Source of the DNA: a bacterium
Lineage (GTDB): Bacteria; Patescibacteriota; Minisyncoccia; UBA6257; WO2-44-18
Direction of reading: 5' to 3'
DNA: 64,000 nucleotides
NCBI GenBank assembly: GCA_023244815.1
Contig: JAHFLQ010000001.1
Coordinates: 31,037 to 95,036, forward strand
This document shows positions 2,828 to 62,130 of this stretch, in pieces (positions within the stretch are counted from its first letter, which is position 1; every line of letters begins with the position of its first letter). A program made the translations under genes and the position numbers. Below the pieces are notes generated by a model. It was not told where the DNA came from, made no database searches, and saw only the letters and a list, made by a program, of their open reading frames with translations.

Positions 2828-3121
2828 ATGAGCATAGAGAATCCAAAATTTGATCAAGGCCCGGAAGAAAATCCATCAGAAATGGTGGAAGAGGCGTTGC
2901 GTAAACTCAAAGAAGCTAAAAACTTGGCCTCTCCGGAGTTACGGAAAGAAATAGAGAAGATAGAGATTTTAGAAGGCGTTGGAGTGGAAAGCGTTCAGGA
3001 AGTTGAAGATATTTTAGGTGGCATTGAGGCTAGTCTTGAAGCGGACCCGGAAAACAAAGAGTTACTTGACCAGAAGACCTATTTTGCGGAAGTATTAAAG
3101 CAAATAAACGAATTAAAATGA
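2828..3121 (+). CDS. hypothetical small acidic coiled-coil protein
   Basis: 97 aa ORF 9 nt after the tyrS stop, Glu/Lys rich. Its N-terminus (ENPKFD) resembles that of the next ORF. Confidence 0.35.
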   Translation: MSIENPKFDQGPEENPSEMVEEALRKLKEAKNLASPELRKEIEKIEILEGVGVESVQEVEDILGGIEASLEADPENKELLDQKTYFAEVLKQINELK

Positions 3122-3336
3122 ATTTCGAAAATCCTGAATTAGAAAAGATAGAAGAACTTTGGAATAATCTATCCGAGGAAAAGAAAGAAAATTTAGAGAC
3201 GGGTCTTGGCATAGAAGAGGCAGAAACCCTTCATTTTTTGCTAAGCGGTGTGGAGATGACCAGCGATTCGCCCGACGCGGTTATTCTCTCTGACGAAGAG
3301 ATTGCAGAGAAGGTGCACGCTTTACTGGAAATGTAG
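3118..3336 (+). CDS. hypothetical small acidic protein, paralog of preceding ORF
   Basis: 72 aa, overlaps the previous stop by 4 nt. N-terminal MNFENPELE resembles MSIENPKFD of the previous ORF. Confidence 0.3.
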   Translation: MNFENPELEKIEELWNNLSEEKKENLETGLGIEEAETLHFLLSGVEMTSDSPDAVILSDEEIAEKVHALLEM

Positions 3337-4089: not shown

Positions 4090-4180
4090 CGCTTGCTGAT
4101 TATGATAAGATAAATTATAATAAAACGCAACTAAAGGGCTTGGCCCAAGAGCGCGAAGCACGATTGGTTGCCAAACCTTT

Positions 4181-4287
4181 ACCCCGTTAGATAGCGGCCA
4201 ATCCATGAATAATCTACCACTTAAGAAACCAGAAAATAATCGTCGTATGGGTAAAAGCTATGTAGCCTTTTCCGCATCTAACGGGGT
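4181..4287. repeat. palindromic repeat element copy A (termini ACCCCGTTAGATAGCGGCCAATC ... CCGCATCTAACGGGGTG)
   Basis: Terminal inverted repeat CCCCGTTAGAT(A)GCGG. The 20-mer CCCGTTAGATAGCGGCCAATC is identical to copy B at 28099-28203. Lies 64 bp upstream of the ftsH start. Confidence 0.6.
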
Positions 4288-4350
4288 GCTCAATTTTGTA
4301 GCTAAATTTTCTTCGCTACAGTTGAGCTCGAAAATTTAGACAAAATTCGC

Positions 4351-6189
4351 ATGAAGAAATCGTTTTTTACAAACATTTTCTGGGCAGTAGTTGGCTTAAT
4401 GACGATTGCGCTTCTTTTTTCCGTTTTGTCCCAGTCGGGCGAGCCATCAGCGCATCTTACCGTCGATGGATTAGTTGCTAAAATTAATGCTGGGCAAGTA
4501 GAGAAAGTTACCGTTAACGGCAACAATCTTTCCATTGTACTGAAGGGGGGAGAGAAGGCGACCGCCAGAAAGGAAACCGAATCCGGCCTCACGGAAACTC
4601 TCAAAAATTATGGCGTAGATCCAAAAGCTCTGCAGGCGGTTTCTTTGGATTTTGAAGACGAGTCTGGGTTGAAATTCTGGCTGGGTATTCTTGTGCCGAC
4701 CATTCTGCCGCTCCTGATTATCGGCGTAATGTTTTGGCTGATTTTTCGGCGGTCGCAATCCGGGGCCTCGCAGGCGTTTACTTTCGGAAAGGCCAACCTG
4801 CGGCTTTTCGGGGCTTTTAAAGACAGGGCGAATTTTAAAGACGTCGCTGGGTTAAAGGAAGCCAAGCAGGAGCTGGAGGAGGTAGTGGATTTTCTTAAAA
4901 ACCCCAAAAAATACCTGGAAATCGGCGCCCGCATTCCCCGCGGTGTTTTGTTAATGGGCCAACCCGGTACTGGAAAAACCTTACTTGCCCGCGCCGTGGC
5001 CGGAGAAGCGAATGTTCCATTTTTCCACATTTCCGCGTCTGAATTCGTGGAAATGTTTGTGGGCGTCGGCGCCTCACGCACCCGAGACGCCTTTATGACC
5101 GCGAAAAAAGCCGCGCCGGCCATTTTATTCATTGATGAAATAGACGCTGTCGGAAGGGAGCGTGGGGCGGGTATCGGCGGCGGACACGATGAACGGGAAC
5201 AAACCCTCAACCAGATTCTAGTGGAAATGGACGGTTTCGAGCGGGATACTCGAGTGATTGTGATTGCCGCTACCAACCGGCCGGATATTTTGGACCGAGC
5301 GCTCCTGCGGCCGGGCCGGTTTGACCGACGGGTCGTTTTGGATCTGCCGGATATTAACGATAGGGAGGCGATTTTGAAAGTCCATGCTCGTGGCAAAGCG
5401 CTGGATAAGAACGTAGATTTGCGCCGCGTGGCGGTGCGGACGCCGGGATTTTCCGGTGCCGATCTGGCTAATCTAATGAACGAAGCGGCAATTCTTGCGG
5501 CTCGCAATAATCGTAAATTAGCCAGCCAGCAAGACCTGCTCGAATCCATCGAAAAGGTGATTCTTGGCCCGGAGCGCAAGGGACGGGCGATTTCGGAAAA
5601 AGAAAAGAAAATTACTGCCTACCACGAAGCTGGCCATGCATTGGTGGCGGTTAGCCTGAAAGACGCCGATCCGGTTCAGAAGGTGTCAATTATCAGCCGC
5701 GGTTCCGCCGGTGGTTATACGCTTAAATTACCCTTTGAAGAGAGTCGTTTACACACCAAATCCCAGTTTGTCGCCGATCTGGCCATGATGTTTGGCGGTT
5801 ATGCTTCGGAAAAAATGGTTTTCGGCGATATTACTACCGGCGCCTCCAACGATCTTAAGCAGGCGTCGGAGTTGGCGCGTCTGTTAGTGACTAAATATGG
5901 CATGAGCGAAAGGCTGGGGCCGCTGACTTTTGGCAAAACCGAGGAGTTGATATTTTTAGGCAAAGAAATTGGTTCCGAGCGGAATTATTCGGAAAAAGTA
6001 GCCGCAAAAATAGATGAAGAAGTTACGGGGATTGTTGAACGCGCTCATCAATTAGCCAAGAAGATTATTAATACTCGCAAGAAGGTCTTGGATGCGATTG
6101 CCCGCGCTTTGATAGAAAAAGAAACGTTGGAGCATGAAGATTTTTACGCGCTCCTGAAGCCTTTTAATTTAAAACCGCTCTCTATTTAG
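4351..6189 (+). CDS. ftsH: ATP-dependent zinc metalloprotease FtsH
   Basis: N-terminal TM, AAA+ Walker A GQPGTGKT, Walker B, second region of homology (SRH), and the zinc motif HEAGHALV. Confidence 0.95.
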
Positions 6190-25296: not shown

Positions 25297-25313
25297 TTGA
25301 GCGAAGCGAAACC

Positions 25314-25345
25314 CCGTTAGATTGCAGCCTCGATCTAACAGGGTA
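25314..25345. repeat. minimal copy of palindromic repeat family (termini only)
   Basis: CCCCGTTAGAT tgcagcctcg ATCTAACAGGG: the two family termini separated by only 10 bp. Nested inside a second inverted repeat (GAGCGAAGCGAAA / GCTTTGTCGCTTTGCTTC). Lies 58 bp upstream of the leuS start. Confidence 0.5.
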
Positions 25346-25402
25346 GCTCTTAATTCTAGATAAGCTTTGTCGCTTTGCTTCAAATCTTATAGAATTAAGG
25401 CA

Positions 25403-27721
25403 ATGGCAAAGTACGATTTCAAAAAGATTGAAAAAAAGTGGCAGAAAATCTGGGCAAAAAATAACTATAAAATCTGGCACGCAGATGATTCCGGCAAGAA
25501 AAAAGCCTATGTGCTGGATATGTTTCCTTACCCGTCCGGCGACGGTTTGCATGTTGGACACGTGGAGGGGTATACCGCCTCCGACATTTACAGCCGATTT
25601 TTGCGGATGAACGGCCATAATGTACTCCATCCGATGGGCTGGGACGCTTTTGGTTTGCCGGCGGAAAATTATGCCATTAAAAAGAAAATCCACCCGAGCT
25701 TGGTAGTAAAAAACAATGTCAAGAATTTTACCCGCCAGTTAAATAGTCTGGGGTTTAGTTACGATTGGCAGAGAGAAATCAATACCACCGACCCACATTA
25801 TTACAGATGGACGCAGTGGATTTTTCTCCAGCTTTTCAAAAGGGGGCTAGCCTACGAAGCGGAGATACCGGTCAATTGGTGCCCGTCGGATAAAACCGTG
25901 CTGGCCAATGAAGAAGTAACGGAAGGATGCTGCGAGCGGTGCGGGTCCAGAGTTGAGCGGCGCCAGTTAAAGCAATGGATTTTGAAAATTACCGCCTATG
26001 CCGATCGATTGCTCACGGATTTGGAGGAGTTGAATTGGCCGGAGAAAGTTAAAGAAATGCAGAAAAACTGGATCGGCCGTTCCGAAGGAGCGTTGATCAA
26101 ATTTCATCTTGTTTGTGATCGAGTTTGTACCGAAGACGACGTCGAAGTTTTTACCACTCGCGCCGACACGCTGGCCGGCGCGACCTATCTAGTACTCGCT
26201 CCCGAGCACCCGTCAATCCAGAAGCTGGAATCTAGAATTCAGAATCTAGAATCAGTCAGGAAGTATATCGAACAAGCAAAAAACAAAAGCGAAAGAGAGC
26301 GGCAGGAAAATAAAGAAAAAACCGGGGTGGAGCTGAAAGGTATTCGGGCGGCCAATCCGATCAATGGAAAAGAAATTCCGGTTTGGATTTCCGACTATGT
26401 TCTGGTTCATTACGGTACCGGCGCGATCATGGCCGTGCCGCAGCACGACGAGCGCGATAAAGAATTTGCCACGAAATTTCATCTGCCGATTATTGATGAG
26501 CCGCTGATTCCAAAAGAGGAAGTGGTTGCCAAGGTTGGCGGTAAAAGAACAGTTAATTATAAATTGCGCGACTGGATCTTTTCCCGTCAGCGTTATTGGG
26601 GCGAGCCGATTCCGATTATCAAATGCGAACAATGCGGCAATCAGCCGGTGCCGGAAAAGGACTTGCCGGTTGAACTGCCTAAAGTTAAGAATTACGAACC
26701 GACTGGCAATGCCGAGTCGCCGTTAGCGGGGATTAAGAGTTGGGTTAATGTAAAATGCCCGAATTGCCAAGGACCAGCGAAGCGCGAGACTAATACTATG
26801 CCCCAATGGGCAGGATCCTGCTGGTATTATTTGCGCTATCTTGATCTCACAAATAAAAAAATACTCGTTGATCCAAAAAAAGAGAAGCACTGGATGCCGG
26901 TGGATCTTTACATCGGCGGCGTTGAACATGCGGTGCTTCATCTTTTATACGCTCGTTTTTGGCACAAAGTTTTATTTGATATCGGTGCGGCTTCCACGAA
27001 AGAACCTTTTACAAAGTTAGTGAATCAAGGATTGATTCTCGGGCCGGATGGCCAGAAGATGTCCAAATCGCGCGGCAATGTGGTTAATCCCGACGACATG
27101 GTTAAGGAATTCGGCGCCGATTCGCTCCGGCTGTACGAGATGTTTATGGGACCGTTAGAGGATGCCAAGCCGTGGGATCCCCGAGGGATTGTCGGCCTCT
27201 ACCGTTTTTTGGCCAGGGCATATAATCTTTTTTCCGTAGTAGCGAAAGGAGCGAAGTCCAGCGAAGCCGCGATTAAATTACTTAACAAAACGATCAAGAA
27301 GGTTAGCGAAGATATTCAGAGTTTCCATTTCAATACGGCAATTTCCGCCATGATGATTTTATTAAATGAAATGGAAAAATCAGGCGTTGGGCCAGTAGAG
27401 CTGGCCGTGCTGGCTAGAATGCTCTCACCATTCGCGCCTCACCTCGCGCAGGAGTGCTGGTCGCTACTCGGTAAAAAGTCCTTGCTAGACTATGAGCAAT
27501 GGCCGGCTTGGGACGAATCGTTAGTTGCCGAAGAAATTTTCGAACTGCTCATTCAAATCAACGGCAAGATGCGGCACAAAACGGTTGTGAAAAAGGGAAT
27601 TGGCCAGAGAGAAGCAGAAGCGCAGGCGCTCCAGCATCCGGAAATCAAAAAGTGGCTAAAGGGCAAACAACCGCAGAAGGTTATCTTCGTTAAAGACCGC
27701 TTGATTAATTTTATAGTTTAG
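25403..27721 (+). CDS. leuS: leucyl-tRNA synthetase
   Basis: HIGH (HVGHVEGY), KMSKS (KMSKSRGN), CP1 editing and zinc-binding inserts. Start taken at MAKYDFKKIEKKWQ. Confidence 0.9.
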   Translation: MAKYDFKKIEKKWQKIWAKNNYKIWHADDSGKKKAYVLDMFPYPSGDGLHVGHVEGYTASDIYSRFLRMNGHNVLHPMGWDAFGLPAENYAIKKKIHPSLVVKNNVKNFTRQLNSLGFSYDWQREINTTDPHYYRWTQWIFLQLFKRGLAYEAEIPVNWCPSDKTVLANEEVTEGCCERCGSRVERRQLKQWILKITAYADRLLTDLEELNWPEKVKEMQKNWIGRSEGALIKFHLVCDRVCTEDDVEVFTTRADTLAGATYLVLAPEHPSIQKLESRIQNLESVRKYIEQAKNKSERERQENKEKTGVELKGIRAANPINGKEIPVWISDYVLVHYGTGAIMAVPQHDERDKEFATKFHLPIIDEPLIPKEEVVAKVGGKRTVNYKLRDWIFSRQRYWGEPIPIIKCEQCGNQPVPEKDLPVELPKVKNYEPTGNAESPLAGIKSWVNVKCPNCQGPAKRETNTMPQWAGSCWYYLRYLDLTNKKILVDPKKEKHWMPVDLYIGGVEHAVLHLLYARFWHKVLFDIGAASTKEPFTKLVNQGLILGPDGQKMSKSRGNVVNPDDMVKEFGADSLRLYEMFMGPLEDAKPWDPRGIVGLYRFLARAYNLFSVVAKGAKSSEAAIKLLNKTIKKVSEDIQSFHFNTAISAMMILLNEMEKSGVGPVELAVLARMLSPFAPHLAQECWSLLGKKSLLDYEQWPAWDESLVAEEIFELLIQINGKMRHKTVVKKGIGQREAEAQALQHPEIKKWLKGKQPQKVIFVKDRLINFIV

Positions 27722-28011: not shown

Positions 28012-28098
28012 CCGCATTGCGCATAGTGCGGCTTTTTTAATTGCTGGCTCAAAATTTTCAATCCGTAGGAGTGGAAAATTTTGCAAGCAGCAATATAA

Positions 28099-28203
28099 TC
28101 CCGTTAGATGCGGGGAAGGTAATATAATTAATTTAATTCGTTATTTGTTAACCAATATACCAATTTAGCCAAAACTTTGATTGGCCGCTATCTAACGGGA
28201 TGC
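28099..28203. repeat. palindromic repeat element copy B (inverted relative to copy A)
   Basis: The reverse complement begins CCCGTTAGATAGCGGCCAATC (20/20 identical to copy A) and ends CCCCGCATCTAACGGGAT. Its AT-rich interior is unrelated to A. Lies 57 bp upstream of glmS. Confidence 0.6.
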
Positions 28204-28209
28204 TCGTAA

Positions 28210-28258
28210 TCTTATAAATTTCGCGCTTGCGTACGCAAGCTAAAATTTATAAGATTAC
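28210..28258 (+). promoter_or_regulatory. large perfect hairpin immediately upstream of glmS start
   Basis: 13-bp arms ATCTTATAAATTT / AAATTTATAAGAT enclose the 16-bp palindrome GCTTGCGTACGCAAGC. Ends 4 nt before the glmS ATG. Confidence 0.35.
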
Positions 28259-28261
28259 GGC

Positions 28262-30049
28262 ATGTGCGGCATCGCCGGATATATAGGAAAGAAAGAGGGT
28301 CTGCCGATTGTTTTCACTAATTTGCGGAAATTAGAATATCGGGGCTACGATTCAGCCGGCGTGGCCTTTTTCGATTTCCGCGGGAACGGCAAACTCATTA
28401 AAACTGTTGGCAAGCTGGACAACCTGGAAAAGCTTATAAAAAATAAAAAATCTTTACCACTGACGGCCGTTGTCGGCCACACTCGATGGGCTACCCACGG
28501 AGTGCCGAACAAAGCCAACGCGCATCCTCACGCGGACTGCGATGGCAAAATCTTTTTGGTTCATAACGGCATCATTGAAAATTATCAAGAACTAAAAGAA
28601 AGTTTAATTAAAAAAGGGCATAACTTTCGATCCCAAACTGATACAGAAGTCGCCGCTCATTTGGTAGAAGAATACGGCTTTGAACCGGCCCTGAAAAAGA
28701 TAGTTGGCGCTTACGCTCTCGCGGTAATTTATAAAAATGATCCGGGCAAAATTTATGTTGCGAGACTAGGCAGTCCCTTGGTAGTCGGTGTTGGGCAAGA
28801 TGAGTATTATGTAGCTTCCGACCCTACTGCCTTGGCTGGCTTAGTTAAAAAAGTAATTTATTTAAAAGATGGCCAACGAGGAGTTTTGTCGCTGAACAGC
28901 ATGCTCATTGGTCCGGCGCGGCCGAAAATAGAACCGCTGGATATTGATCCGGAACAAGCCCAAAAAGGCGACTTTCCGCACTTTATGCTCAAGGAGATTT
29001 TTGAGGGGCCGGAAGTTTTGCTTTCCGCTTTACGAGGGCGTTTGATGCCTGACAAAGGAATAGTGAAATTGGGCGGATTGGAGGGCGTAGCTGATCAACT
29101 GCGAAAAGTAGACAAAATGGAAATTCTTGCTTGCGGCACTTCTTACTATTCCGGCCTGGTGGGCGAGTTATTATTTGAAGAATTTGCCAGGATTCCTACC
29201 GAAGTTTTACTTGCTTCCGAGTACCGATATCGCAAACTTCCAGTGAAAAAGGGAACTGGAGCGCTGTTCATTTCTCAATCCGGAGAAACTGCTGACACTT
29301 TGGCGGCGCTCCGCAAGGCTAATAACCACAAACTTTTAACATTGGGGATTGTAAACGCGGTTGGTTCCAGCATTGCTCGCGAAACGAAAGCGGGAGTTTA
29401 TAATCATGCTGGTCCGGAAATTGGCGTTGCCTCCACCAAAGCCTTTCTCTCACAGCTTGGGGTCCTAACCCTGATGTCTCTTTACTTCAATCCCAGAAAA
29501 ACTAAGAATCACAAAGAATTTTTGGAAGAGTTGGCGGCCATACCGTTAAAAATAAGGAGCATTTTGAAAGAAAGCAATCAGATAAAAACACTGGCAAAAA
29601 AATATTTGAAATACAATAATTTTCTGTATTTGGGACGTGGCTACAATTATCCGACAGCTTTGGAAGGAGCATTAAAGCTTAAAGAAATTTCTTATGTGCA
29701 TGCCGAAGGTTACGCTGGCGGCGAGATGAAGCATGGACCGATAGCTCTTATAGATAAAAATTTCCCCACCATTGCCGTGGTAACTAAAAATCTGGTTTAT
29801 GAAAAGATGATCTCCAATTTAGAGGAGATCAAAGCGCGTTCCGGGCCAATTTTGGCCATTGCCACAGCCGGAGATAAAAAGATCGCTAAATTAGCTGACG
29901 ATGTTTTTTATGTTCCTAAGACGGCAGAACCCCTGGAGGCGATGCTGAATATCATACCTCTGCAGCTTTTCGCCTATTATTTTGGAACGCTCCGCGGGCA
30001 CGACGTGGACAAGCCGAGAAATCTTGCTAAAAGTGTAACGGTAGAGTAA
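28262..30049 (+). CDS. glmS: glutamine--fructose-6-phosphate aminotransferase (isomerising)
   Basis: N-terminal nucleophile MCGIAGYIG, glutaminase domain, two SIS domains. 595 aa. Confidence 0.9.
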   Translation: MCGIAGYIGKKEGLPIVFTNLRKLEYRGYDSAGVAFFDFRGNGKLIKTVGKLDNLEKLIKNKKSLPLTAVVGHTRWATHGVPNKANAHPHADCDGKIFLVHNGIIENYQELKESLIKKGHNFRSQTDTEVAAHLVEEYGFEPALKKIVGAYALAVIYKNDPGKIYVARLGSPLVVGVGQDEYYVASDPTALAGLVKKVIYLKDGQRGVLSLNSMLIGPARPKIEPLDIDPEQAQKGDFPHFMLKEIFEGPEVLLSALRGRLMPDKGIVKLGGLEGVADQLRKVDKMEILACGTSYYSGLVGELLFEEFARIPTEVLLASEYRYRKLPVKKGTGALFISQSGETADTLAALRKANNHKLLTLGIVNAVGSSIARETKAGVYNHAGPEIGVASTKAFLSQLGVLTLMSLYFNPRKTKNHKEFLEELAAIPLKIRSILKESNQIKTLAKKYLKYNNFLYLGRGYNYPTALEGALKLKEISYVHAEGYAGGEMKHGPIALIDKNFPTIAVVTKNLVYEKMISNLEEIKARSGPILAIATAGDKKIAKLADDVFYVPKTAEPLEAMLNIIPLQLFAYYFGTLRGHDVDKPRNLAKSVTVE

Positions 30050-56684: not shown

Positions 56685-57086
<402 letters not shown>

Positions 57087-57124
57087 GGTTTTATTCTAGA
57101 TTCTATTTTCTAGCTTCTAAATTT

Positions 57125-58445: not shown

Positions 58446-60929
58446 TTAGAGGCAGATTATTCCGGCAACTTTGTCGCCGGGGTTTAAGGTCATAATGCGG
58501 ACGCCCTGGGTGGCGCGGCTGGCGATTCTAACAGTGGCAATTTTAGTTCGGATCACTTGTCCTTTGGCGGAAAGGGCAAGCAACTCTTCTTCGGCGTCCA
58601 CGATATGTGCGGCGACGAGCTGGCCGGTTTTGGCGGTAATTTTCGCGGTCTTTACGCCGGAGCCGCCGCGTCCCTGCGTTTTATATTGCGTGATTGGCGT
58701 CTGCTTGCCATAGCCGTTGGCCATCACCACCAACAGGCGGGCGTTCTTCAAACCTTTGGGTACGAGATCCATCGAGCTGACCTGGTCGCCCCCCTTCAGG
58801 CGGATGGCGTGCACGCCGGCGGCCACGCGCCCCATGGTGCGGACGGCTTTCTCGCGGAAACGGATGGACTGGCCTTTGGCGGTCGTGACGATCACATCGT
58901 CATCTCCGGAGGAGAGGCGCACCCAGTTCAGCTGGTCGCCCTTCTTCAGGCCGATGGCGATGATGCCGGTGCGGCGGACGTTGCCGAATTCTTTGAGCGA
59001 AGTTTTCTTCACGAGGCCGTTTTTGGTCACCATCGTCAGGTTGCCGTCGCTCGCTTTTTCGTAGGTGATCATCGCGCTGATCTTTTCTTCCGTCGGGACT
59101 TCGAGGAAGTTGTGGATCGGTTTGCCCTTGGAGGTGCGGGTGCCGGCGGGAATTTCGTAAACTTTGGTCTGGAAGACGCGGCCGCGATCGGTGAAGAAGA
59201 GAACATTGTCGTGCGTGTTGGCCGCCATAAAGTTGATCAGGAAATCTTCTTCGTTGACGTCCGAGCCGATCAAACCTTTACCGCCGCGTCCCTGCGTTTT
59301 GAAAGAAGTCGGCGGGACGCGTTTGATGTAGCCGCCCTGCGAGAGGGTGATGATCGTCTCTTCCTGCGGAATCAGGTCTTCTTCTTTGAACTCGGAGAGT
59401 CCGCTTGCGACCACTTTCGTGCGCCGATCGCCCTTATATTTTTCTTTCAACTCGGAAATTTCGTTTTTGATAACCTGCAGGATTTTAGCCGGGCTCTTTA
59501 ACAAAAGTGTCAGCTCGGCGATGATTTTTTGTTTTTCTTTCAGTTCATTTTCTATCTTTTCACGCTCCAAGTTGGCGAGTGTCTGAAGTTTCATTTCCAA
59601 AATAGCGTCGGTCTGGCGTTCGGAGAACTTGAAATTCTTCATCAAATTCACTTTGGCGTCGTCGCGATCCCTGGACTTCTTAATGGTAGAGATCACCTTA
59701 TCTATAATAGAAAGCGCTTTGGAGAGACCCGTCAGGATATGCGCGCGTTCTTCGGCTTTCTTCAGATCAAACTGGGCGCGGCGGCGGACGACTTCATTTC
59801 GGTGCGCGAGAAACGCCGCCAGCACATCCTTGATGGACATTACTTCCGGCTGGAGGCCGCCGGCGAGCGCAAGCATGTTTAAGTTAAAATTCTTCTGGAG
59901 ATCGGTGTATTGGTAGAGCTGGTTCAGTACTTTCTGCGGCGTGGCGTTGGATTTCATTTCAATGATAATACTGATACCTTCCTTGCCCGATTCGTCACGC
60001 ACGTCGCGGATGCCTTCAATTTTTTTCTCGGTGACCAGTTCGGCAATTTTGATAATCAACTCGGATTTATTCACCTGATAGGGGATGGAGGAAATTTCAA
60101 TGTAGTAATCGTGCTTGCTTTCGCCCTTCCCTTCCTTGATCTCGGCGGTGCCGCGAGTGGTAATCGTGCCGTGGCCGGAAACATAGGCTTCGGTAATCGC
60201 TTTTTTGTCATAAATAACGCCGCCAGTCGGGAAATCCGGACCTTTCACGAATTCCATCAGATCGTGCGTCGTGGCTTTCGGATTATCCGCCAAATGCAAA
60301 ATCGCGTCGGAGACTTCGCCAAGATTATGCGGCGGGATGCTGGTGGCCATGCCGACGGCGATGCCCACCGCTCCGTTCAATAATAAATTAGGGAGTTTTG
60401 CGGGCAGGACTTTCGGTTCCTGGCGAGTGCCGTCATAGTTGGGATTCCAGTCCACCGTTTCTTTATCGATATCTTCGAGCATTTCCTCGGCGATACGCGA
60501 GAGGCGGGCTTCGGTGTAGCGGTAAGCGGCGGCAGAGTCGCCGTCGATCGAGCCGAAGTTTCCTTGTCCCTCCACCAGCGGATAGCGGAGCGAGAATTCC
60601 TGCGCCATGCGGACGAGGGCGTCGTAGACCGCCATATCTCCGTGCGGGTGGTATTTACCAAGCACATCGCCGATGACGGTGGCAGACTTCCGGAATTTGG
60701 CGCCGTGGGTCAGGCCGGCTTCCCACATTGTCCAGAGAATGCGGCGGTGCACCGGCTTCATACCGTCGCGCACATCCGGCAGGGCGCGGCTGACGATGAC
60801 CGACATCGCATAATCCAAATAAGACTCCTGGAGCTCGGTGGAAATTTCTCGGTTCTCAACATTCACCCGTGGCGCGGCGGCCTTCGGCTCCTCTTCCTTT
60901 TTACCTTTTGGTTCTTTTTTCTTTGCCAT
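58446..60929 (-). CDS. gyrA: DNA gyrase subunit A
   Basis: [26 protein letters not shown] and the active-site Tyr region, plus a C-terminal beta-pinwheel with GyrA-box. 827 aa. Confidence 0.95.
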
Positions 60930-61184
60930 TTACCCCGTTAGATAGTTATTTAATCGACTCTTGATGTATCGTTTGCCCCAAGCGGTTTTTAGATATTTCT
61001 CGCGATGTGTTGCGTCCTGCTGATTCGCGCACGCTTCGAAATAAACGAGCTTAACGGGCAAACGATTCTTCGTGGACACAACCATACCATTGTTATGCAA
61101 ATTCAGAAGTTGTTTAAGATCGTGCGTGTAGCCGGTATAAAACTGGCGATCTTTCTTACTTTGTAGAATATATGTGTAATGCAT
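60930..61184 (-). CDS. GIY-YIG nuclease superfamily protein (YhbQ/UPF0213-like, 84 aa)
   Basis: MHYTYILQSKKDRQFYTGYTHDLKQLLNLHNNG...LVYFEA carries the GIY-YIG signature. The stop codon directly abuts the gyrA ATG. The CDS lies inside a repeat-family element. Confidence 0.7.
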   Translation of the reverse strand: MHYTYILQSKKDRQFYTGYTHDLKQLLNLHNNGMVVSTKNRLPVKLVYFEACANQQDATHREKYLKTAWGKRYIKSRLNNYLTG

Positions 61185-61200
61185 AGTATCTAACGGGGTG
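60933..61200. mobile_element. repeat-family element carrying the GIY-YIG gene (candidate autonomous or cargo-carrying copy)
   Basis: Left end TTACCCCGTTAGATAG (60933-60948) and right end ATCTAACGGGGTG (61188-61200) match the termini of elements A and B. The left terminus encodes the last codons of the GIY-YIG gene (Y-L-T-G-stop). Confidence 0.4.
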
Positions 61201-61203
61201 AAT

Positions 61204-61569
61204 CTAGTGAAGTTTCGTCGGTGAAATTGGTGCCAGTCCTTCCAGCACGAAATTCTGCTCTGAGTTTTCAATAACGATGTTATTTTGAGTGGAAATTTTC
61301 GCGTTAATTAACGCCGCCACCTTATCATAAATGATTTTCGCTCCAGCGCTGAAGATCGCGAAAAATCCTGTAGTATTATTTTCGGCATTTTCCACCGCCA
61401 CGACGTCTGAAGGGGGAGTAACCGTCGCTACAGTCAGCTTCATATATGTAAGCCAGAGCGCGACTACAACGACCATCGAGAGCCCGCTCAAAACTACCAG
61501 CCAGACTTTTTTGGCGGACTCGTCGGAGTTTTGGATTTTGAGGACGAAGTTTTTTACCATTTTTAACAT
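61204..61569 (-). CDS. hypothetical membrane-anchored protein
   Basis: One TM (WLVVLSGLSMVVVVALWL), 121 aa, no domain assignment. Confidence 0.45.
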   Translation of the reverse strand: MLKMVKNFVLKIQNSDESAKKVWLVVLSGLSMVVVVALWLTYMKLTVATVTPPSDVVAVENAENNTTGFFAIFSAGAKIIYDKVAALINAKISTQNNIVIENSEQNFVLEGLAPISPTKLH

Positions 61570-61599: not shown

Positions 61600-62130
61600 T
61601 TAGGGCTTTAACACGACGACTTTCGTGCCCGGCACCAGCTCTTTTTTCTTGACCACCAATTTTTCTTCCGGCTCCGCCTTCTTCTCCACTTCTTCCAAAA
61701 ATGCTTTCAGCTCCGCCGGCTTCATGTATGAAGGGATGACGATTTTCGGCTGGATCTGCTTGATCACTTTCGCGCTCACGCCCGCCGGGACGAAAAGAAT
61801 ATCCACTTCGCCGAGTTTATCCAAAAGCCCCGGCTCCATTTCTTTCATCGGCTCGCCCATAAAAACCAGCCGCATCTCTTCCGTCTTTACCAGGTAGGTG
61901 GCGCTAGCATCTTTATTTCCCCAGCCGGCAATTTCCACTTCCAGCATTTCGTATTCGCCCGGTCCGTAAATATGCCCCGCTTCCGGCGGCCACATTTCTT
62001 TCGCGTCTTTGGAGCGCGCCTCGGTATGCAAAGTAACATCGCCCTTGAAACGCGGCAGGGGATCAGCGGCAATACTCACCTTACCGCTCTGAACCTTAAA
62101 ACACCGCTCCCCGCAGTAGTTGATTACCAT
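61600..62130 (-). CDS. UPF0173-like MBL-fold protein with degenerate metal-binding motif
   Basis: Collinear with UPF0173 metal-dependent hydrolases (MVINYCGERCFKV..., VDILFVPAGV, PKIVIPSY). The HxHxDH block is replaced by HTEARSKD. Confidence 0.5.
   Translation of the reverse strand: MVINYCGERCFKVQSGKVSIAADPLPRFKGDVTLHTEARSKDAKEMWPPEAGHIYGPGEYEMLEVEIAGWGNKDASATYLVKTEEMRLVFMGEPMKEMEPGLLDKLGEVDILFVPAGVSAKVIKQIQPKIVIPSYMKPAELKAFLEEVEKKAEPEEKLVVKKKELVPGTKVVVLKP

Follow-up and report, generated by a model that had tools for sequence, protein, structure and literature searches.

A 270-bp nuclease-encoding unit at the start of gyrA in a Patescibacteriota genome, a candidate member of a family of very small mobile elements

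A bracketed nuclease gene against the gyrA start codon

The window, by which we mean the whole 64,000-nucleotide (nt) stretch analysed (contig JAHFLQ010000001.1, positions 31,037 to 95,036, from a member of the Patescibacteriota), carries on its minus strand a unit of 270 bp that abuts gyrA and consists of an open reading frame (ORF) for a GIY-YIG nuclease enclosed by two short complementary arms (Table 1). The ORF is preceded by ATTCACCCCGTTAGATA-CT-ATG and ends in ...AAC TAT CTA ACG GGG TAA-ATG, its TAA (60930-60932) touching the ATG of gyrA (60927-60929). The two arms form an inverted repeat of 17 nt with one mismatch. The strings TTACCCCGTTAGATAG, at 60930-60945, and ATCTAACGGGGTG, at 61186-61198, also terminate a 107-nt copy at 4181-4287 that lacks the ORF, and the window holds 6 occurrences of the 12-mer CCCCGTTAGATA with at most one mismatch (expected, 0.17), a count reached by none of 100 shuffles. 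The original prediction had described a nuclease of 84 amino acids that shares its termini with the non-coding repeat copies, with the left terminus encoding the last four codons, the right terminus directly before the ATG and the stop codon 0 nt from the gyrA ATG; this layout is confirmed throughout, the four codons being Y-L-T-G and the right arm ending 2 nt upstream of the ORF. The boundaries of the element were set by the rule that restores host reading frames at no fewer than 10 independent intragenic insertions elsewhere. Its target flanks at gyrA are TT (61202-61201) and AA (60930-60929), and the final A of the nuclease stop codon is target DNA, outside the element. The composition of the element is foreign, with a GC content of 0.42 versus 0.54 for gyrA and 0.47 versus 0.69 at third codon positions.

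The protein scores 49.5 bits with the Pfam GIY-YIG profile (cut-off 22.6), which places it in that family. NCBIfam contains no model that matches it. When the family profile was compared with solved structures, the best matches were BH0048 (1zg2, E=6e-8) and EF2693 (1ywl, E=6e-6), followed by SLX1. A Foldseek search with the AlphaFold model (pLDDT 87) likewise returned 1zg2 (BH0048) first, then seven SLX1 chains, and I-TevI weakly at E=0.25; the predicted fold superimposes on 7cq3 with a root-mean-square deviation of 1.7 Å over 71 columns. Since the profile and fold matches are UPF0213 proteins and then SLX1, the label "YhbQ-type" given to the gene at the outset is right. By profile and predicted fold, the nuclease belongs to the UPF0213/SLX1-like branch and not to that of UvrC and I-TevI. 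Its catalytic tyrosine, histidine and glutamate are present. The arginine of the R-x-x-x-H motif, kept in 117 of the 120 closest homologues, is a leucine in the window protein (CGT to CTT, R26L); by motif, it aligns with R27 of I-TevI and with the arginine of R-L-R-Q-H in SLX1. The complete catalytic set is thus a property of the family and not of this copy. Because R26L removes the catalytic arginine, the gyrA copy is probably dead as an enzyme, immobile and now fixed.

The order MBL-fold gene, small membrane ORF, gyrA is common to many relatives, including a close one (L006). There the junction between the small ORF and gyrA is empty (TAA-CC-ATG) and the junction between the MBL-fold gene and the small ORF is filled, the reverse of what is seen in the window. 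The two nucleases are only 80% identical, against 89% for GyrA, and we therefore regard the two elements as separate insertions. Upstream of gyrA in 80 further relatives from metagenomes (65-83% identical), neither the nuclease nor paired arms were found in any (0/80). The expectation that gyrA of relatives would lack the insertion is thus borne out, and the opposite arrangement, a GIY-YIG gene at this locus without flanking repeats, did not turn up. The gyrA-side nuclease does not share the fixed syntenic locus of a housekeeping YazA/YhbQ orthologue. This presence/absence polymorphism between related genomes supports the view that the unit is mobile.

How gyrA is expressed behind such an insertion was also considered. 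The distance from the stop of the upstream ORF to the gyrA start is -8 to +15 nt in the closest relatives, which indicates that gyrA is operonic. In a promoter scan, the sole promoter-like minus-strand site lay ahead of the first gene of the operon, and none was found inside the element. The earlier claim that the element must supply the promoter and 5' untranslated region of gyrA is therefore not supported. The predicted empty site, CACTAG-ATT^A-ATGGC, has a 4-nt spacer. In the filled site, the TAG of the upstream ORF stands 1 nt before TT, the nuclease ATG follows 21 nt further and the nuclease TAA adjoins the gyrA ATG. The insertion thus appears to keep a chain of closely spaced ORFs, and the element would supply stop-start coupling (TAA/ATG) and not a promoter; its GGGG could perhaps act as a weak surrogate ribosome-binding site for gyrA. 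Separately, TGCTATAAT was observed about 10-12 nt before the gyrA start in six relatives (L105, L119, L130, L140, L152 and L160), which suggests leaderless or near-leaderless transcripts.

Table 1. Coordinates in the window of the element, its parts, its neighbours and the copies without ORF
Feature	Position	Strand	Remarks
Whole element, 270 bp	60931..61200	minus	terminal nt, 13-nt arm, ORF, 13-nt arm, terminal nt
GIY-YIG nuclease ORF, 84 amino acids + TAA	60930..61184	minus	Pfam PF01541, E=5e-13
5' arm, ACCCCGTTAGATA on minus strand	61187..61199	minus	ends 2 nt ahead of ORF ATG; pairs with 60932-60944 in predicted folds
3' arm, TATCTAACGGGGT on minus strand	60932..60944	minus	encodes Y-L-T-G and first stop-codon base; covaries with 5' arm
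gyrA	58446..60929	minus	start codon adjoins element stop; GyrA 89% identical to that of L006
Membrane-protein ORF upstream, 121 amino acids	61204..61569	minus	TAG 1 nt before target TT; L006 homologue 49% identical
MBL-fold gene, first in operon	61600..62130	minus	Pfam Lactamase_B_3; promoter-like site 62168-62140
ORF-less copy, 107 nt	4181..4287		between tRNA-Gly and ftsH; single-stranded DNA fold closes on arms, z=-3.5
ORF-less copy, 104 nt	28098..28201		upstream of glmS; subfamily of 4181-4287, opposite orientation
Minimal hairpin copy, 34 nt	25311..25344		upstream of leuS

Alignment of the 121-residue ORF with its L006 homologue indicates that it probably starts at the second ATG, at 61560, and not at 61569 (region 61558-61569).

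Arms, target sites and hairpin derivatives across phyla

Clustering at 90% leaves at least 3,340 relatives of the protein, most of them 84 amino acids long and about 75-85% identical, with an invariant Y-L and a nearly invariant T-G at the C terminus. We found 434 loci with a relative in contigs representing one genome per species, and analysed 80 of them. These span about 10 phyla (Patescibacteria, Bacteroidota, Verrucomicrobiota, Planctomycetota, Ignavibacteriota, Cloacimonadota, Elusimicrobiota, Omnitrophota, Atribacterota and others) and include four cultured isolates; known carriers in culture are Niabella drilacis DSM 25811, Marinilabilia salmonicolor MSL42, Saccharicrinis sp. 156 and a Halalkalibaculum. 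Proteins of this clade are 65-85% identical across phyla, which is above housekeeping identity at that distance. The bracket ACCCCGTTAGATA...TATCTAACGGGGT, or a variant of this pair, encloses the ORF at 72 or more of the 80 loci; the repeat measures 13-17 bp, and the genomic contexts are unrelated. The ORF had been proposed as the repeat family's protein-coding member, a proposal that would be undermined if the repeat were never associated with the ORF elsewhere; the opposite is observed, and the ORF and its bracket travel together across phyla. The housekeeping gene yazA, for its part, occupies a fixed locus between trmNF and rsmI and has no bracket.

The sequences of the arms vary in a concerted manner: GTGAGATA is found with TATCTCAC, CTGTGTAATA with TATTACACAG, CTGTTAAATAA with TTATTTAACAG, and AGCCCG with CGGGCT. 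In an alignment of 65 distinct arm pairs, both sides had changed at 15 of the 21 pairs tested, the observed covariation score was reached by none of 500 shuffles, and, as a control, pairing was halved when one partner was slid by 1-3 columns. Many of these substitutions are synonymous in the codons for Y-L-T-G and are mirrored by the non-coding arm, which argues that complementarity itself is maintained. G-U pairs occupy only 6 of 845 stem cells, so that a constraint at the level of DNA fits better than an RNA helix. The GIY-YIG domain is the only ORF of the element, which encodes no DDE, HUH, serine or tyrosine transposase. A tblastn search of phage and plasmid collections retrieved distant UPF0213 genes only and not the element itself, no copy was found in a scan of the IMG/VR viral contigs, and nothing relevant was obtained from an Rfam scan of the window at gathering thresholds or from permissive scans of 60850-61300 and 4100-4400.

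To define the target, the flanks of 67 loci were aligned on the anchor ACCCC...GGGGT. They read TT-Y-...-R-AA, with T at both left positions in 65-67 loci and A at both right positions in 62-65. After merging of similar flanks, 39 distinct contexts remained, and R-T-T^A-A, with a purine before TT, is the sole sequence that they share. At 10 or more independent sites inside coding genes, exact removal of Y...R brings back the host frame together with a conserved motif: FDL^KVV and GQI^NMYL in YhcG-like nucleases, REAVI^NAVAHRDY and IQI^KIFD in AlbA_2-type proteins, and NWI^NQRL, EIL^TAEIS, FTAL^AELS and NML^AEA in DinD/BRO-like proteins. TT and AA must thus be host DNA, without target duplication, and no direct repeats were found in the flanks. 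That they are parts of the element or a duplicated target is ruled out by their use in host codons, and a target TTC^AAA entered in either orientation is ruled out since keeping Y and R breaks the host frames. The nuclease stop codon is made of the T-R of the element and the first A of the target, which explains why R is a purine. In all 29 clearly intragenic loci the nuclease ORF has the orientation of the host gene, and the ATG of the next gene usually lies 0-12 nt downstream of intergenic copies. The terminal nucleotides occur in the pairs (C,A) 20 times, (T,G) 8, (C,G) 4 and (T,A) once (Fisher p=3e-4). An inversion of the interior between the arms was considered as the source of the (C,A) and (T,G) classes, and the polarity of mini-hairpin loops gives no support for it. 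Translational bypass across the stem was considered too; inspection of the junctions, with no dedicated test, found no matching take-off and landing codons.

Some sites have features of their own. At the "LRDNI" site of DinD/BRO-like genes (L007, L014, L015, L020, L022, L030, L040, L045, L046 and L077, around 2950-3260), the C-terminal host fragment is in frame with the nuclease ORF right after its TGA; exact removal leaves 1 extra T, and both host halves are open despite 33-75% divergence. In loci from Verrucomicrobiota (L050, L057 and L059, about 2565-2850 / 2975-3260, and L067), the element measures 285 or 336 nt, lengths divisible by 3, and the host frame is open through the whole element, overlapping the nuclease frame (synonymous shuffles, P=0.03-0.08 each); in L027, which is filled at the same site, the host frame through the element is not open. 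Lastly, one identical nuclease of 88 amino acids (L163-L172; gene at about 2501-2767 in L163) was seen in at least 24 metagenome contigs, always between the genes of an AbiEi antitoxin and an AbiEii toxin, 2 nt after one and overlapping the other.

The three ORF-less copies of the window are predicted to fold on their arms as single strands, as is the full element. The copies of 104-107 nt form a subfamily of their own; they share the termini and about 20 nt beside each arm, and hold no convincing remnant of the ORF. We considered whether they are simple internal deletions of the nuclease ORF; similarity beyond the termini is weak and we do not claim it. In other loci, 25 short elements (31-62 nt) share both the arms and the TTY/RAA flanks, and many of them adjoin an ORF-bearing copy. 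Mid-sized ORF-less elements retain AAY-TAT-CTA-ACG-GGG (N-Y-L-T-G) beyond the repeat, and the ORF-less elements of other genomes are therefore best seen as deletion derivatives. One of 48 nt (L055) occupies a DinD-like site that is filled by full elements in homologous genes. The suggestion that the non-coding copies derive from the coding one thus stands for these other loci and does not extend to the window copies of 104-107 nt.

Directly after each ORF-less copy of the window comes GCTC and a hairpin of 55-60 nt (4288-4353, 25345-25405 and 28202-28264; RNA fold z-scores -2.3, -2.9 and -7.3). These hairpins end in (G)GC 0-1 nt before the ATG of ftsH, leuS and glmS, respectively; their sequences differ and their boundaries are the same. 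They may represent a second family of palindromic elements or a structure of the 5' leader.

Palindromes also accompany more distant GIY-YIG genes. In L163 (3440-3830, identical in L169 and L170), a gene of 97 amino acids lies between two complete mini hairpins with the same arms, one of them within its 3' end, an arrangement like that of REP/RAYT. Other genes, 34-51% identical (L111 3987-4422, L061 610-998, L003 1033-1300 and L028 4003-4354), are bracketed by ATTCCGGG...CCCGGAAT, CCTGCC/GGCAGG or TGCCCTGTGTAATAA. A general link between such nucleases and palindromes is supported by these sequence arrangements. The ORFs of L061 and L003 extend at their 3' ends into an apparent tRNA gene, as judged by eye.

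A proposed mode of movement and its alternatives

Comparison of the loci establishes, at the level of sequence, the architecture of the unit, its seamless insertion at TT^AA, its co-orientation with host genes, the complementarity of its arms, its turnover between relatives and its decay to hairpins. On this basis we favour, with a fair measure of reserve, the reading that the segment 60931-61200 belongs to a family of very small selfish elements whose movement is driven by the nuclease. The gene has no promoter of its own, and the nuclease would be made by read-through transcription and termination-reinitiation. The two arms would form a stem in single-stranded DNA, and the nuclease would recognise the foot of this stem and cut there, as modelled on the cleavage of branched DNA by SLX1. 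It would cut TT^NA targets likewise, and the joints would be sealed by host ligation or repair. At the window locus, the operon promoter would still drive transcription of gyrA, and gyrA translation would proceed by coupling to the nuclease stop codon. The element may be among the smallest self-contained mobile elements.

Several points weigh against this proposal. GIY-YIG enzymes are hydrolytic: such a nuclease cannot itself join DNA, which leaves the essential joining step unaccounted for. Among the 67 elements there is no convincing near-identical pair at clearly different sites, and recent transposition was thus not directly seen. A pattern search of metagenomes for an empty allele found none, and all three independent assemblies of the strain with the identical neighbouring ORF are filled with the element, base for base the same. 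The mostly non-complementary terminal nucleotides lack an explanation, 3 insertion events need the removal of one further T, and the canonical TTY/RAA flanks are missing at the three ORF-less copies of the window. Finally, divergent elements are found at the same site of closely related host genes, which fits homing or gene conversion as well.

Homing remains plausible for this last reason, although we judge it unlikely on the whole. The nuclease would then cut an ORF-less palindrome or a conserved host site of the ATT^AAT type, the ORF would be copied in by break repair, and the hairpins would spread otherwise. GIY-YIG enzymes are classical homing nucleases. The host genes of L027 and L050 are 93% identical and hold, at the same site, nuclease genes whose DNA is only 71% identical; L030 and L077 are similar. 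An imprecise junction is common to all DinD-like "LRDNI" loci, and the 48-nt ORF-less element of L055 stands at that very site. Against this, the 39 contexts have nothing but R-T-T^A-A in common, even if some sites are taken repeatedly by divergent elements. Moreover, arms of 13 bp are too short for RecA-type repair, the codons kept by ORF-less elements point to loss and not gain of the ORF, and the protein has no DNA-binding domain beyond its 84-residue core.

Improbable, in our estimate, is a passenger role for the gene, in which an unlinked transposase would act in trans on a miniature element whose ends are the repeats, with the GIY-YIG gene riding along. Miniature elements as a rule rely on a transposase whose gene lies elsewhere, ORF-less copies are common, and the nuclease lacks joining chemistry, all of which would suit this role. 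What makes it unlikely is that ORF and arms are interlocked, the arm carrying codons and the target completing the stop codon, and are linked across about 10 phyla; distant GIY-YIG subfamilies, furthermore, each have their own palindrome. No transposase-like gene lies beside the window copy, the one locus whose flanks were screened for transposases.

Less probable still is an intron-like behaviour, in which the terminal stem would bring the junctions together in RNA, the element would be removed from transcripts and the interrupted genes would be functional. The constant orientation with the host gene, the frames restored by exact removal, the openness of both halves of interrupted genes even between divergent hosts and the stem of the predicted RNA fold are all compatible with it. 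However, neither gathering nor permissive thresholds gave a match to an Rfam intron or any other family, the arms pair in the Watson-Crick manner expected of DNA, the identified intragenic hosts (YhcG-, AlbA_2- and DinD-like genes and integrase genes) include no core housekeeping gene, and 3 events are out of frame after exact removal. We know of no bacterial machinery that cuts and rejoins across a plain helix. Least credible of all, and contradicted by the comparative sequence data, is that the gene is an ordinary housekeeping repair nuclease of the YhbQ/YazA type in the gyrA operon, with the repeats as regulatory or RNA-stability hairpins: UPF0213 proteins are widespread and have been proposed to be vertically inherited repair enzymes (PMC1564403), and the ORF-less copies of the window all lie upstream of housekeeping genes, but the gene is absent here in 80 of 80 relatives and sits at the other junction in the closest one, its composition is foreign, its catalytic arginine is lost and the genuine yazA resides at its fixed locus without a bracket.

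Relation to known systems

The nuclease-driven element that we favour resembles several known systems without coinciding with any of them. In REPIN/RAYT systems, a RAYT gene is bracketed by cognate palindromes and short non-autonomous hairpin copies are dispersed through the genome (PMC3116915, PMC3337134). A nuclease-type gene within cognate palindromes, hairpin copies and subfamily-specific palindromes are features of our element as well, the likeness being one of architecture and only analogous. The RAYT protein is an HUH/Y1 enzyme, flanked by REPs, that cuts and joins, and its gene is single-copy and vertically inherited, whereas the protein here is a GIY-YIG nuclease of 84 amino acids, its ORF usually lies in the loop of the hairpin, and the element is found across phyla and inside coding genes.

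The element also shares with IS200/IS605 a very small size, the lack of target duplication, seamless excision, hairpin-forming ends and short target motifs. Members of that family encode an HUH TnpA of about 130-150 amino acids, have a length of at least about 700 bp and carry their hairpins subterminally; here, in contrast, there is one terminal inverted repeat and no HUH protein. Of the features of insertion sequences and inverted-repeat transposons in general, terminal inverted repeats are present, and target duplication and a recognised transposase are absent. There is also a resemblance to piggyBac elements in the target centred on TTAA, the exact excision and the terminal repeats of 13 bp that start with CCC.... 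It is probably coincidental; piggyBac duplicates TTAA and encodes a DDE transposase of ~600 amino acids. With Correia elements and Rickettsia palindromic elements, the ORF-less copies have in common a length of 30-110 nt, bounding inverted repeats, and positions near gene starts and sometimes within genes; those elements show target duplication or have no known coding partner, whereas here there is a coding partner and no duplication.

As to the protein, YazA of Bacillus subtilis, YhbQ of Escherichia coli and eukaryotic SLX1 are closest in sequence and fold. YazA differs in its fixed locus and lack of bracketing repeats, and SLX1 in its RING domain and its partner SLX4, while the clade of the element is mobile and far more conserved. 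The homing endonucleases I-TevI and Seg are selfish GIY-YIG genes too, with the motifs Y...Y...R-x-x-x-H...E. They are proteins of 200-250 amino acids with separate DNA-binding modules, no terminal repeats and one long site, in contrast to the bare SLX1-like core found here, and they belong to the UvrC-like lineage (PMC1564403). The same phylogenomic study of the superfamily, from 2006, describes bacterial SLX1-like proteins as vertically inherited, places the selfish GIY-YIG genes on the other branch, and mentions one "recently inserted GIY-YIG domain" in an HsdR protein (PMC1564403). In hindsight, this HsdR insertion may be the same phenomenon.

An SLX1-like, tightly conserved clade that behaves as a mobile element of ~270 bp with hairpin derivatives, even in the minimal genomes of Patescibacteria, matters for annotation, since the elements split genes, mimic "GIY-YIG domain fusions" and lie between genes whose translation is coupled. 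If the nuclease does drive its own movement, it would push down the size limit of autonomous mobile DNA, add an enzyme class to transposition, offer an origin for some orphan palindromic repeats and provide a compact, structure-guided nuclease for study. We put forward as a tentative possibility, one that we would not yet back, that these elements form a new class of prokaryotic transposable element. They would be the smallest autonomous ones (about 265-290 bp), with an 84-residue SLX1-like nuclease acting on the hairpin of its own ends, insertion at TT^AA and a stop-codon base borrowed from the target, and the subfamilies paired with palindromes would point to a general system parallel to REP/RAYT. 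A literature search for a description of the element, arm sequences included, found none; most subscription journals lay outside it, and an earlier description is possible. The cultured carriers make the mobility of the element directly testable.

Elsewhere in the window, an intergenic array of tandem GTAGAAA units (GCTAGAAAGTAGAAAGTAGAAAGTAGAAAGTAGAATG) was seen at 57015-57050, with the partly complementary TTCTAGATTCTATTTTCTAGC 58 nt downstream, at 57094-57114.

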